NCBI GenBank assembly: GCA_048941285.1
Contig: JBHLNS010000009.1
Span: 1 to 64,000, forward strand
Reading direction: 5' to 3'
Source: Promethearchaeota archaeon
GTDB lineage: Archaea > Asgardarchaeota > Lokiarchaeia > Sigyniarchaeales > SOKP01
Length of the DNA stretch: 64,000 nucleotides
Positions 20,458 to 25,518 of this stretch are shown here, piece after piece. Positions within the stretch are counted from its first letter, which is position 1; each line of letters starts with the position of its first letter. Under the pieces are notes generated by a model. The model ran no database searches, had not been told where the DNA came from, and worked only from the letters and a program-made list of their open reading frames with translations. Both the position numbers and the translations under genes were made by a program.

Positions 20458-21045
20458 GTGATCTCAATGGGAAGAAGAAAGCGTAAACAAGTAAGCCCAA
20501 AACGTGTAAAAAGAGTCCCAAAAATCTTTACTTGCCCAGAATGTGGTGAGAAAAGTGTAAAAGTGACAGATTTAAAAAAGAAAGGGGCATTTGCTACTGT
20601 AAAGTGTGGAAATTGTGGTTTAACCAAAGAAGTATTAGTAAATTCAATTTCAGAGCCCGTTGATGCATTTGGGGATTTTATTGATATTTATTATGCAGAT
20701 CAAGAACTATTAAGATTAGAAAAACGTATTGTTAAATTAAAAAAAGAAAATGAATGGGGAGAACTTGCTTTAGCCTACTCTATTTTATCAGACCTATGTA
20801 AAACAAAAGCAGCAATTTTATTGGAAGAAGATGATGTGAATTTAGATGAAGTTGATAATTGGAAAATGCAAGCTGAGAAATATAAACAGCTTGAAAAAGA
20901 CGCCATATTAAAACTTGACACTGAAGAACTAGAACGAGGAGTCCGAACTGATGAAGAATCGTTATTTACTGAAAGTGATACAAAGATAAAAAAAGAACGG
21001 AAAATTGATGATATTTTTGATGATCCAGGATTTTTAGAGTTTTAA
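20458..21045 (+). CDS. elf1: Transcription elongation factor Elf1 with C-terminal helical/acidic extension
   Basis: MGRRKRK...FTCPECG...CGNCG...EPVDAFGDFID; probable start ATG 20467. Confidence 0.85.
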   Translation: MISMGRRKRKQVSPKRVKRVPKIFTCPECGEKSVKVTDLKKKGAFATVKCGNCGLTKEVLVNSISEPVDAFGDFIDIYYADQELLRLEKRIVKLKKENEWGELALAYSILSDLCKTKAAILLEEDDVNLDEVDNWKMQAEKYKQLEKDAILKLDTEELERGVRTDEESLFTESDTKIKKERKIDDIFDDPGFLEF

Positions 21046-21246: not shown

Positions 21247-21693
21247 TTACGTCTGTTTACGTTTTGCAAAGAGCTGCTTTAATTCCCCCATAATTGCTCC
21301 TCTAAGTGATACTGGACTAGCAGGACGGCCAGGGGTGGGAACAGGACCTGAACCTCCAGGGGGACCTCCAGGTGGGCCTCCTGGTGGTGGTGGTGGAGGA
21401 CCTCCAGGTGGACCTCCAGATGCACGCGCTGTAACAGGAGTTACCGCAGTTGGTGTTGTTACGGGAGCGCCTCCCGATCTGAGTGATGAAATTTGATTAT
21501 TTAAAGAATTAATTTGGTTTTGTAAATTTGAAACTTTCTCATTTACAGAGCCTAAGGATTGATCGACCAAATCAGGGATGCGTAAGACAATAGACATTAT
21601 CTTTTCAATAATATCGCCAAAAGCATTTAACTTTTCTTCTAATGGCGCTTTTCGAGTACTATCTAAGAAGCTTGCAAATTCTTCAGCACACAT
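21247..21693 (-). CDS. Coiled-coil plus polyproline plus basic C-terminal helix protein (Ena/VASP-like architecture)
   Basis: VSNLQNQINSLNNQISSL, GGPPGGPPPPPPGGPPGGPP, C-terminal GAIMGELKQLFAKRKQT. Confidence 0.8.
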   Translation of the reverse strand: MCAEEFASFLDSTRKAPLEEKLNAFGDIIEKIMSIVLRIPDLVDQSLGSVNEKVSNLQNQINSLNNQISSLRSGGAPVTTPTAVTPVTARASGGPPGGPPPPPPGGPPGGPPGGSGPVPTPGRPASPVSLRGAIMGELKQLFAKRKQT

Positions 21694-21821: not shown

Positions 21822-22451
21822 TTAACTCAATTCAGTAATAGTATCTTTTAATTTAATCCAGAGCGTATTGATCTCATCTCTTACCTCAGTGAATTGATAT
21901 ATTTTTTTTATTAATATATCTCGTGCTCTGTCAAAATCTCTTTGAACATCATTTAATTCTTGGTCCAGGAGATTTAATTTATCGCCATCAATTAGTTTAT
22001 TTTTCGCTTTTTCAGCATCTAGAGCTTTTTTTATTACAATTGTTCTTTTGTCAGCGAGTTCTGATAATGCATTAACGAATTCTTCTTTTTTTTGTACTAA
22101 ATATTCTTTTTGCACAGCAAGATCTTTTATCGCATTTAAATATTTATTGTTTGCTTTAATATAATCGTCATTTTTTGAGATAATATCCTTATATAAGTTT
22201 ACTTCTTCATCTTTAATGTTAGACCTATGTTCTCGAGCAAGAGTTTGCATTTGTTTTAATACATCTCTAAAAACTCGGTTTAGCATCTCACGAGTTATAT
22301 TTGCTTTAGTTACATTTTCTGCATATTTCAATTGAGAACTAATGAGATTTTTCTGCGCTTTAGCCAGTTTCTTAAATTGAGAGACGAGGTCTTTCTCAGC
22401 CTTTGCTAATATTAATTCATCTTCATGCGTAATTATAGGACTCATTTTCAA
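21822..22451 (-). CDS. All-helical protein, possibly BAR-domain-like
   Basis: 209 aa of long amphipathic helices with almost no Pro or Gly; fold is inferred. Confidence 0.6.
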   Translation of the reverse strand: MKMSPIITHEDELILAKAEKDLVSQFKKLAKAQKNLISSQLKYAENVTKANITREMLNRVFRDVLKQMQTLAREHRSNIKDEEVNLYKDIISKNDDYIKANNKYLNAIKDLAVQKEYLVQKKEEFVNALSELADKRTIVIKKALDAEKAKNKLIDGDKLNLLDQELNDVQRDFDRARDILIKKIYQFTEVRDEINTLWIKLKDTITELS

Positions 22452-23581: not shown

Positions 23582-24655
23582 TCAGAGTTTATATCGTAAA
23601 ATTCCTATAATTGATCCTAGACCTATTAGTTGCTCACCTGTTAGATTTTCTGTGCTCATGATATTAATCTCTCCACCAGTTTTTTCAACATTTGTTATAA
23701 TTTCTTCAATTTTTAGCTTATTTTGTTTTGAAGAGCCTCTAATTAAAACATCCGCTATTAATAATTCTTTAATTGCTCCTTTTTCAGAAGCAATAAACAC
23801 TTCATCAAGGCCTATGGCAATAAGATCAGCATCAATAGCAAATTGTCTCATTACATTTTCTATTTGTTCAGATTCCTGCAACACTTTTATTTTATTCCTA
23901 AAATTTTCTAACTTATTTGATTTTAAAGCTTCTCTAATTCCGCTTTCAGTCCCAGAACTAGTATGGAACGTCTCAATTTTACCTTTAAAATTAAAACCTG
24001 GTTCTTTTTGAAGAAAATTTATAAAATTGTCTTTGGTATTTCCAGGTCCACATACTATGATTAAGTTTATTTCCACGTTCTTTATATTTTCTATTATTAC
24101 CTTCTCAATTTCGGTAAAGAATTCACTTAATGCCTTATTTCGATAAGTTTGTTTGTATCGTTTACCAGGTATGTTTTTTCTGATTGTAGCTATCCTATTA
24201 TGGCTAAAATTTGTGATAAGAGCTAAGTTTGCCAATCCCGTTTCAATTGCAATAATTAATGTAATAAAATTTGATTCAAATTTCGATGTTTCTTTTAGTC
24301 TTCTTAATTCATTTTTCAACCAATTTTCTTTAATTATTGTTAACGTTTGAGAAACTTCTACATTAAAGGTATGGTAGCTTCCAAAGCTAACATAATCGTC
24401 TGGACCTTCTAAAATTTTACCTTTTATTCTTAATCGATTTGAAAATTCATGAAAAGATATTGATTCAACTTTGAGTTTTAATTTCATTAATTTACGTTCG
24501 CCCGAAGTTCCCTCTTTAAGAACAACTCTTCTTTGAGTAAGGGAAGAAACTTCATCATCTTTATTGATAATATTATAGAGTGACCATAGATCATTAAGAT
24601 TTTCTATCTTAACGGTAATCTCTCCATGCTTTTGATCCATAGCAAGAATTTTCAA
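23582..24655 (-). CDS. pelA: Pelota/Dom34 ribosome-rescue factor
   Basis: DLWSLYNII, FHEFSNRLRIKGKI, GSYHT, IPGKRY, GPGNTK, LGSIIGILRY. Confidence 0.95.
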   Translation of the reverse strand: MKILAMDQKHGEITVKIENLNDLWSLYNIINKDDEVSSLTQRRVVLKEGTSGERKLMKLKLKVESISFHEFSNRLRIKGKILEGPDDYVSFGSYHTFNVEVSQTLTIIKENWLKNELRRLKETSKFESNFITLIIAIETGLANLALITNFSHNRIATIRKNIPGKRYKQTYRNKALSEFFTEIEKVIIENIKNVEINLIIVCGPGNTKDNFINFLQKEPGFNFKGKIETFHTSSGTESGIREALKSNKLENFRNKIKVLQESEQIENVMRQFAIDADLIAIGLDEVFIASEKGAIKELLIADVLIRGSSKQNKLKIEEIITNVEKTGGEINIMSTENLTGEQLIGLGSIIGILRYKL

Positions 24656-24800
24656 ATCTTGACTGTCTCACTAAAAAATTCTATTTATTTATAATAAATT
24701 CAAAATTTAAGAAAAGCTTAATTCAATTTGATTACAAAATTAATAAAAATAATATAAATAAAAAAGATAAAAACAAAATGTATTAAATATTTAACAGCCT

Positions 24801-24953
24801 TTATTTTTCTCCTAAAGCTTTTTTAACTTTTTCTAATTCTTCCATACGCTTTCTTTTTTCTTCCTCTCTTCTCTTTAACTCTGCTTCATCGACTTTTTGA
24901 AGTGAAACACCTTTTTTAATTTCTTCTTGTAATTCTTTATCTACTGGAGCCAA
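24801..24953 (-). CDS. 50-aa microprotein with a WH2-like motif (MAPVDKELQEEIKKGVSLQKVDEAELKRREEEKRKRMEELEKVKKALGEK); not in ORF track
   Basis: TTG start with SD-like AAAGGTG upstream, TAA stop; LxxxIxxGxxLxKV motif followed by an E/K/R-rich helix. Confidence 0.75.
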   Translation of the reverse strand: MAPVDKELQEEIKKGVSLQKVDEAELKRREEEKRKRMEELEKVKKALGEK

Positions 24954-25044
24954 TTTTATTGAACACCTTTTACTTTATATTGTCCTAAAATAATTAAATT
25001 AATATTTACACAAAATATATTAGAATTTATTTATAAGTTTAAGT

Positions 25045-25518
25045 TTATAGAGAGTCCATTTCCAATTCCATTAAATAGGCACTTTCTCCCGATTGATAAT
25101 AATTTTTAAGTATCTCGGGATTTTTTTTGAATTTAAATTTTTCATATAATTTTATAGCGTTTGAATTACTTATTTGAACGTTTAATACAATCTTTTTAAT
25201 TTCTTTTACTTTTTTTAGTTCTTCTATGGTTTTTTGAAGAAGGAATGAACCATAACCTTTATTTTGAAATTTTGGTTTTATAAGAAAATTAATCATATTT
25301 GCTCTCTCTTTTTGATCTCTTATAACTATAATAAAACCAATTAATTTTTTTTTTCCTTTGTTATTTTCTAATTTTAGAAAGAGTGCATTATTTTCTAATA
25401 GATTTCTCAGTAAATCCTTAGAAAAAGCATTCTTCTTGAAAATTTTTTGCTCAAGATTCACAATTTTTTTTAAATCTTTTGTTGTTACTTTTTTAATTTC
25501 CATTAAAACCATATTCAT
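25045..25518 (-). CDS. GNAT N-acetyltransferase (RimI/Ard1-like)
   Basis: FQNKGYGSFL, LNVQISNSNAIKLYEKF, NYYQSGESAYLM. Confidence 0.88.
   Translation of the reverse strand: MNMVLMEIKKVTTKDLKKIVNLEQKIFKKNAFSKDLLRNLLENNALFLKLENNKGKKKLIGFIIVIRDQKERANMINFLIKPKFQNKGYGSFLLQKTIEELKKVKEIKKIVLNVQISNSNAIKLYEKFKFKKNPEILKNYYQSGESAYLMELEMDSL

Follow-up and report, generated by a model that had tools for sequence, protein, structure and literature searches.

Does a 50-codon open reading frame (ORF) of an Asgard archaeon encode a protein, and could that protein bind actin? The ORF in question lies in a stretch of 64,000 nucleotides (nt) from a Promethearchaeota archaeon (contig JBHLNS010000009.1 of assembly GCA_048941285.1, positions 1 to 64,000), referred to here in its whole length as the window. 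An initial annotation, made from the sequence alone, had proposed at this locus a hidden microprotein resembling WH2 motifs and beta-thymosins, a stand-alone Asgard peptide that would bind actin monomers. The ORF is present and its translation is identical to the one given there; its location on the minus strand and its TTG start codon had both gone unmentioned. The analysis below identifies it as a real gene whose product belongs to a family built on a unit of about 45 residues, which in relatives is also found joined to a profilin domain. With some reserve, we lean towards the proposal that the product binds monomers of Lokiactin.

Conservation across genomes, which the initial annotation had put forward as a check, is clear. 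Six-frame searches located an orthologue in 22 of the 24 other genomes of the same genus, with expect values (E) of at most 1.3e-13. No match to the microprotein was obtained by this search in genome G019, which is 92% complete, and G006 gave only a weak match within a longer frame. All 158 candidates from a word-indexed protein search match at E ≤ 1, and among the 120 matches listed the lengths range from 49 to 51 residues and the identities from 78 to 100%. Named orthologues in public records are called 'hypothetical protein', apart from one evident misnomer. Across 20 same-genus loci the start codon occupies one fixed position as ATG (8), GTG (9) or TTG (3). The Shine-Dalgarno (SD)-like AAAGGTG that had been pointed out upstream is indeed there (Table 1), and 17 of the 20 loci have its GGTG with unchanged spacing, the remaining three reading GGGT, GGGG and AGTG. 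The ratio of nonsynonymous to synonymous divergence (dN/dS) is 0.07, calculated from 120 pairs among 16 of the 20 loci, the four 51-codon loci having been left out (mean dN 0.060, mean dS 0.82). Identity in the flanks of 16 same-genus loci is 82% over the 100 nt upstream versus 63% over the 100 nt downstream. The microprotein ORF is a real, strongly selected gene. The conserved upstream box, the SD and the T-rich tract that follows the stop codon suggest that it forms a separate transcription unit.

A profile built from 22 members, with the window protein (P0001) as one row (alignment A1), matched 78 proteins at E ≤ 0.001, of which 31 reach E ≤ 1e-10, among 1.84 billion cluster representatives. 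Fifty-six of the 78 are stand-alone proteins of 44-80 residues. The others comprise proteins or fragments with several units (P0121, P0175, P0194, P0154, P0178, P0169), proteins with an N-terminal globular domain and one to four units (P0136, P0158, P0190 and the fragments P0174 and P0187), leucine-rich repeats (LRR) followed by a unit and a ribbon-helix-helix (RHH) domain (P0181), LRR with a unit, or a unit alone, next to a RING-like zinc finger (P0191, P0188), RHH with a unit (P0183, P0195), a eukaryote-like protein with FHA, PP1-binding and SAP domains and seven WH2-like repeats (P0172), four fragments shorter than 44 residues, and a bacterial histidine kinase (P0185). The last we regard as spurious, its match being confined to a repeated charged stretch. 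The window protein itself matches the profile over its full length (E 5.3e-26), with L18, K20, K33, R36, E39 and L40 all present, and it is single-copy in its genome, where the next best frame reaches only E 0.3. With the unit found alone, repeated and fused, the 50-mer represents a modular unit of about 45 residues in its free-standing form.

The unit has two halves, a WH2-like amino-terminal half and a charged helix (Table 1). We aligned the window protein with 55 of the 56 small representatives to give 56 rows (A5), leaving out P0177, whose first 15 residues could not be aligned. In the WH2-like half L8 is kept in 42 members, I12 in 42 (with L in 11 others), G15 in 49, L18 in 53, K20 in 48 and V21 in 40, so the homologues do retain the I..G..L.KV pattern on which the initial annotation had made its reading depend. 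In the charged helix E30 is kept in 46 members, E32 in 48, K33 in 53, K35 in 49, R36 in 55, E39 in all 56 and L40 in 53. This stretch had been described as a generic E/R/K single-helix tail, a description that does not hold, as no other part of the protein is so well conserved, and K33, R36, E39 and L40 are nearly invariant. In AlphaFold2 (AF2) models of a profilin fusion and a tandem protein, relatives with shallow alignments (33 and 8 rows) modelled in place of the 50-mer itself, the WH2-like half forms a helix followed by a low-confidence loop, and the charged stretch is helical. The loop spans 8-10 residues over G-x-x-L-x-K between the helices, with a predicted local distance difference test score (pLDDT) below 50. 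The general build of a beta-thymosin is also found here, namely a stand-alone 50-residue protein whose gene has a start, SD and stop of its own, and a helix-loop-helix predicted in relatives.

How close is this half to WH2? The WH2 consensus is an amphipathic helix followed by [LI]-x2-G-x2-L-[KR]-[KR]-[VT]. Residues 8-21 of the microprotein read L-x3-I-x2-G-x2-L-Q-K-V, in the same register as the aligned N-WASP and MIM peptides. A scan of 22,046 stop-to-stop frames of at least 40 residues (2,126,173 residues) found the exact motif L-x3-I-x2-G-x2-L-x-K-V once in the genome, in the microprotein ORF; a looser WH2-type pattern, which the microprotein does not fit, gave six unrelated matches in the same frames. 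Against 177,635 distinct PDB sequences the A1 profile gave six matches at E ≤ 10, of which the best is the N-WASP tandem-WH2 construct 3m3n_W (E 0.017). The MIM WH2 peptide 2d1k_C was also matched (E 1.1). These two alignments run over profile positions 4-25, and the remaining four involve the charged helix or a designed protein. With Pfam, WH2 was matched by five of the 56 A5 members at E ≤ 10, with the best E of any family (3.6e-5). DUF3006 (13 members), Histone_HNS_N (12) and TMA7 (2) were also matched, all far below their cut-offs. We did not accept DUF3006 or Histone_HNS_N as an identity for the protein, treating these sub-threshold matches on the charged helix as compositional. Thymosin was not among the 25 Pfam families most often matched by the 56 representatives. 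The best WH2 value belongs to P0149, which passes the Pfam cut-off (23.7 versus 23.1 bits). Among 20 members picked by hand for an LKKV-like reading seven match WH2, P0149 and six more at E 0.007-0.089, and 13 do not.

In the ESM Atlas, thymosin clusters are the best Pfam-named matches both for the window protein (score 0.86) and for a 55%-identical member (0.86 and 0.84); we treat these as leads only, because the scores lie below 0.9. The orthologous ORFs of loci L034 and L168 contain a D-K-S-x-M-x-K/H-V stretch which may echo the thymosin motif. At the level of the family the motif keeps the WH2 register, and its WH2 statistics range from borderline to just significant. These figures do not establish homology to eukaryotic WH2, and so short a motif may have arisen twice.

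A link to actin biology comes from relatives in which the unit sits behind a globular domain. P0158 has 36 relatives at E ≤ 0.001, two of which carry a precomputed PF00235 assignment. Nearly the full length of the Pfam Profilin model aligns to P0158 (E 2.5e-4, 21.6 bits) and to P0136 (E 1.5e-3, 19.1 bits), although neither reaches the cut-off of 25. The AF2 model of P0190, made from 33 rows, has a mean pLDDT of 72 and a predicted template modelling score (pTM) of 0.45, with residues 21-123 at a pLDDT of about 80. In a Foldseek search the best match to this model was 5zza_P, the Odin profilin bound to actin (E 1e-9, template modelling score 0.87, 27% identity), followed by Loki profilin 2, Loki profilin 1 and then eukaryotic profilins, with 50 matches at E ≤ 0.001. 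Behind the profilin domain of P0190 come a linker, the unit (helix 149-164, loop 165-173, helix 174-198; pLDDT 51-76) and a further small conserved domain. The same arrangement of a unit behind profilin is carried by 33 aligned proteins (A3). An hhalign comparison of the profilin-fusion unit with the microprotein family gave a probability of 97.2% (E 3e-11, 47 columns), and when the A3 profile was searched against the window's genome only its positions 157-201 matched the microprotein (E 3.4e-9). The domain that carries the unit in these relatives is a bona fide Asgard profilin. The same search of the window's genome found three profilin-domain ORFs and no profilin-unit fusion. Two profilin-domain proteins of that genome, of 211 and 217 residues on contigs C74 and C18 (L075:1315-1950, minus; L076:1495-2148, plus), share in their carboxy-terminal extensions a helix P-x-L-K-x-E-I-x-x-F-L-x-W-I-K, placed like the first helix of the unit in the fusions. 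This helix may be a diverged relative of the unit.

Further relatives carry the unit in tandem. These proteins, of 479-497 residues, contain about ten units and occur in eight of the 14 genomes of the sister family; none was found in the 131 genomes of the window's family or in the five of two further families. The tandem unit resembles the microprotein family with an hhalign probability of 89% (E 2e-6). We considered whether the ten units might fold as an alpha-solenoid and rejected this. The AF2 model, from a shallow alignment of eight rows, has a pTM of only 0.18, and its helices of about 37 residues are split by loops of 8-10 residues with pLDDT below 50; the model therefore fits beads on a string better than a compact fold. 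The first loop of P0121, from G27 to D34, is the G-x-x-L-x-K-P-D stretch.

A protein of matching size stands out in a published Lokiactin co-immunoprecipitation (co-IP). The supplementary table of that study (Nature 2026, PMC13716822) lists GNAMCCOK_04085 (UYP47766.1), a 'hypothetical protein' of 56.41 kDa, with 44 peptides, 70.5% coverage, 366 spectra and a proteome rank of 301. Its enrichment is log2 4.53 (P 4.5e-5, adjusted P 0.0021), against log2 4.44 for Lokiactin itself (42.75 kDa) in the same table, and a term search of the article text did not return it (PMC13716822). The tandem ORF of locus L163 (488 residues) has a monoisotopic mass of 56,413.9 Da, and six other tandem ORFs range from 56.62 to 57.65 kDa. 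The masses in the co-IP table are presumably monoisotopic, judging from the mass of its immunoglobulin G contaminant row. A ten-unit relative of the L163 type is thus probably UYP47766.1, identified by its mass alone, and would co-purify with Lokiactin. A search with alignment A4 returned only its query, and a related-locus search with A4 showed no conserved stretch; the related-locus search with A1 gave 45 loci, none from the cultured strain. The two profilins named in that article have masses of 14.47 and 22.82 kDa and therefore are not unit fusions (PMC13716822).

Taken together, we find it somewhat probable that the 50-mer binds Lokiactin monomers in the fashion of WH2 and thymosin through its first half, with the charged helix adding a second contact. 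WH2 and beta-thymosin helices dock in the hydrophobic cleft of actin's barbed face. On this proposal the amino-terminal amphipathic helix (V4, L8, I12) would dock in the same cleft of the Lokiactin monomer, G15 would end the helix, and L18-x-K20-V21 would run extended along the actin surface. The charged helix (23-47) could then run up the monomer like the carboxy-terminal half of a beta-thymosin, or hold a second partner. Acting alone, the 50-mer would sequester or shuttle monomers; the unit behind profilin may be a monomer-delivery form, and ten repeats a multi-monomer, nucleator-like form.

Several observations weigh against this proposal. The window protein has no match to Pfam WH2 (PF02205) or thymosin (PF01290) at E ≤ 10 and does not reach the WH2 gathering cut-off, and the WH2, thymosin and TMA7 models match nothing in the six frames of the whole genome at that threshold. 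The profile search suggested in the initial annotation gave a divided answer, with nothing for the window protein and one relative over the cut-off. Individual N-WASP repeats score only E 29-310. With the broader A5 profile N-WASP falls to third of 23 matches (E 0.064), behind two designed helical proteins, and the MIM peptide is no longer matched. Position 19, where the classic LKKV has its first basic residue, holds A in 15 of the 56 members, K in 12 and E in 11; a basic residue follows L18 in no more than 12 members. V21 is replaced by P in five members, by L in five, by I in three and by T in one. Conservation is highest in the charged helix, a part that is absent from WH2 and has no counterpart in the 28 positions of the Pfam WH2 model. 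The unit is joined to RHH, LRR and RING-like domains too, and therefore may be a general binding module. The genes next to the microprotein encode a GNAT acetyltransferase and Pelota, not actin proteins. With regard to the co-IP, an exact-sequence look-up of the L163 ORF found nothing, leaving mass as the sole means of identification, and three metabolic enzymes rank above UYP47766.1 in the table, so that its enrichment is no proof of direct contact (PMC13716822). The co-IP table holds no row at 6.57 kDa for the 55-residue orthologue (6,570.3 Da) from the genome of L163 (PMC13716822). That orthologue may have lain outside the search database or yielded too few peptides. The WH2/beta-thymosin-like claim of the initial annotation accordingly stands in part, on P0149, the N-WASP and MIM matches and the profilin fusion, and falls short in the window protein itself, which has no Pfam match and reads LQKV.

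The narrow distribution of the family counts on the same side. At E ≤ 0.001 the A1 profile matches 42 of 201 genomes across the phylum, among them 38 of the 40 in the window's family and all three in the sister family, and none of the 157 genomes from 25 other families. In three other families of the same order all 16 genomes gave matches, at E 9e-9 to 0.3, to the single window protein as query, and the small ORFs of those families include canonical LKKV forms (L023, L024). Within the genomes searched the family appears confined to one Loki-type (Promethearchaeota) order, and 'Asgard', the scope first claimed for the peptide, is too broad. Proteins of 130-167 residues that join an RHH domain to one L-x-K-P unit are encoded at loci L030 (genome G002) and L032 (G006) in genomes of the same genus; G006 thus has the RHH-unit form, and the 50-residue gene was not found there at the thresholds searched.

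Could the unit instead be a general helical protein-protein adaptor that makes no contact with actin, its likeness to WH2 coincidental and its links through profilin and the co-IP indirect? We take this seriously and judge it unlikely. Its attraction lies in the breadth of partners, since the unit accompanies RHH domains, LRR plus RHH, and LRR plus RING or a zinc ribbon as well as profilin, in a conservation that peaks in the charged helix and not in the WH2-like half, and in the marginal WH2 statistics of single units. The FHA-PP1bind-SAP protein P0172, probably nuclear, has such repeats as well. What an adaptor leaves to chance is the retention of L8, I12, G15, L18 and K20 in 42-53 of the 56 representatives in the exact WH2 register, the passage of P0149 over the Pfam WH2 cut-off, and fusion to an actin-monomer binder, which is a specific context. 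As a separate observation, P0172 (762 residues) has two SAP domains and at least seven repeats of the WH2-like I-K-A-G-V-Q-L-K; its E is 2e-7 with the Asgard profile and 0.002 with Pfam WH2, and WH2-like repeats would be odd in a nuclear protein.

That the unit is the true archaeal counterpart of the WH2/beta-thymosin module, and so a third class of actin regulator beside the profilins and gelsolins of Loki-type archaea, seems to us distinctly doubtful.

Two further explanations fare worse. A small nucleic-acid or chromatin protein, in which the K/R/E helix would contact DNA or RNA or make a coiled coil as in the amino-terminal domains of the H-NS type, is very unlikely. RHH fusions do exist and Histone_HNS_N is matched in 12 of the 56 representatives, but even the best of these matches (E 1.3e-4) is below the cut-off and all lie on a compositionally biased helix. 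The charge also speaks against it, as residues 23-36 carry about as many acidic as basic side chains and the 50-mer as a whole is acidic (16 D/E versus 14 K/R in 50 residues); the conserved G-x-x-L-x-K-V half would be left unexplained.

Still harder to maintain is a small protein linked to translation or the ribosome, either TMA7-like or a partner of Pelota or of the adjoining N-acetyltransferase. The order GNAT, microprotein, Pelota, radical SAM, seen in the window, is kept in G079, from another genus, and in G030, from another family. However, the neighbours differ elsewhere, being CarS-like and ZPR1-like genes in G038 and genes for a MoxR-type AAA protein and a VWA protein in G033 and G029, and the microprotein gene comes with a conserved upstream box and an SD of its own. 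A likeness to TMA7 also suggested itself; the Pfam TMA7 model (PF09072) matched nothing in the genome at E ≤ 10 and only two of the 56 representatives, at best with E 0.84. In G033 (L111) and G029 (L112), which belong to one family of the order, the microprotein gene stands head to head with that for the MoxR-type AAA ATPase, after which comes the VWA-domain gene. There is practically no room left for a chance open frame in AT-rich intergenic DNA, a reading invited by the short length, the TTG start and the absence of the ORF from every track behind the initial annotation, and refuted by the conservation data: a dN/dS of 0.07 at a dS of 0.82, a start that switches between ATG, GTG and TTG with the frame kept, and 78 clusters (50% identity) that match the family profile at E ≤ 0.001.

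The initial annotation had also noted a 'VASP-like' gene about 3 kb away. That gene is present (Table 1), and its nearness to the microprotein holds only inside the genus. It is kept in 37 of 41 relatives. In 17 same-genus genomes it shares a contig with the microprotein gene at a distance of 3-5 kb, and the two are 78 kb apart in G030 and 110 kb apart in G038. We therefore rejected a general linkage of the microprotein to this polyproline gene. An operon-type linkage to actin genes was likewise rejected, no actin-related Pfam match having been found at E ≤ 0.01 or below between 16 and 34 kb of the window. The carboxy-terminal helix of the polyproline gene product, S-L-R-x-x-I-M-x-E-L-K (of the type S-L-R-G-A-I-M-G-E-L-K), recurs directly before the unit elsewhere, in the LRR/RHH fusions P0181, P0191, P0195 and the L030 ORF and in the 63-residue stand-alone P0192. 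WASP/VASP-type proteins are laid out in this way, with polyproline ahead of such a helix.

Two more ORFs lie near the polyproline gene. One, between it and the radical-SAM gene, encodes 209 residues and looks all-helical; its Pfam matches are all weak and sub-threshold, led by SAM_2 at E 0.011, and the PDB sequence search brought no meaningful match. The other encodes an Elf1-type zinc-ribbon transcription elongation factor (Pfam E 1e-18) with an acidic carboxy-terminal extension of about 115 residues.

Table 1. Positions of the microprotein gene, its parts and signals, and nearby features in the window.
Feature	Position	Strand	Description
Microprotein coding sequence	24801..24953	minus	50 codons; TTG start 24951-24953, TAA stop 24801-24803; from ORF listing and translation
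WH2-like half, residues 4-22	24888..24944	minus	amphipathic helix (V4, L8, I12), G15, L18-Q-K20-V21-D22
Charged helix, residues 23-47	24813..24887	minus	conserved; E-L-K-x-R-E-E-E-K-K-K-R-M-E-E-L-E-K-V-K type
SD-like AAAGGTG	24964..24970	minus	GGTG ends 10 nt 5' of the start codon; from sequence
AT-rich box	24987..25005	minus	candidate archaeal TATA/B-recognition-element (BRE) promoter element; 34-52 nt 5' of the start; kept in 16 aligned same-genus loci
T-rich tract	24757..24779	minus	candidate archaeal oligo-T terminator; directly 3' of the stop; read from sequence
GNAT acetyltransferase	25045..25518	same as microprotein	upstream of microprotein
Pelota	23582..24655		downstream of microprotein
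Radical-SAM genes			flanking
'VASP-like' (polyproline) gene	21247..21693	minus	148 residues; helical N-terminus, coiled coil, G/P-rich polyproline tract, C-terminal amphipathic helix
All-helical-looking ORF	21822-22451	minus	209 residues
Elf1-type elongation factor	20458-21045	plus	

What would follow if the unit were such a true counterpart of the WH2/beta-thymosin module? With a WH2/thymosin-like family, the known means of archaeal actin control would extend to monomer sequestration and possibly nucleation, through a sequestering 50-mer, profilin-unit delivery proteins and ten-unit proteins that line up monomers and nucleate Lokiactin filaments in the manner of tandem-WH2 nucleators. Actin control of the WH2 type would in that case be older than eukaryotes or have evolved twice for one and the same surface of actin, and the unremarked top match of the published Lokiactin co-IP would be accounted for. 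The origin of this type of regulation would also become directly testable with a peptide of 50 residues. Even if actin is not bound, the unit is an abundant, strongly selected module in the culturable archaea closest to eukaryotes.

How does the family compare with known systems? In the portions of the literature consulted, published control of Asgard actin names only profilins and gelsolins, and the one WH2-like element described is the motif of gelsolin, with no stand-alone archaeal WH2-like protein (PMC9433394; 10.1101/2025.11.30.690169; PMC13716822). The present family would seem a good candidate for an undescribed archaeal actin regulator. In the Asgard two-domain gelsolin the linker carries a four-residue WH2-like motif of the LKKT type, the structure of which has been solved on rabbit actin (Akil et al. 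2022, PMC9433394), and therefore Asgard proteins do use an LKKT-type contact with actin; Loki gelsolins read LVDV or LKDV at this position. Unlike the unit, that motif lies inside gelsolin and is not preceded by a WH2 helix of its own family; in sequence it is unrelated to the unit. A precedent for the profilin-unit fusions, with profilin and a WH2-like helix in one chain, is reported for the trypanosomatid profilin, in which a WH2-like insertion places its helix in the target-binding cleft of the actin monomer (PMC10907219). There the insertion is within a eukaryotic profilin fold, whereas the Loki unit lies behind profilin, after a linker, and is followed by a small domain.

With beta-thymosin (PF01290) the microprotein shares its stand-alone nature, similar size, an amino-terminal helix, a motif of the LKKT type and a helical carboxy-terminal half, although this half is one long conserved charged helix rather than the linker and short helix of thymosin. 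From WH2 (PF02205; N-WASP, MIM) it differs in the extra conserved charged helix of 25 residues, in the residue after L, which is mostly not basic, in the restriction of the family to archaea of one order, and in that the window protein lies below Pfam detection. What it has in common with WH2 is the short amphipathic helix followed by G-x-x-L-x-K-V in identical register, in a family whose members occur singly, in a polyproline or profilin context, or in tandem.

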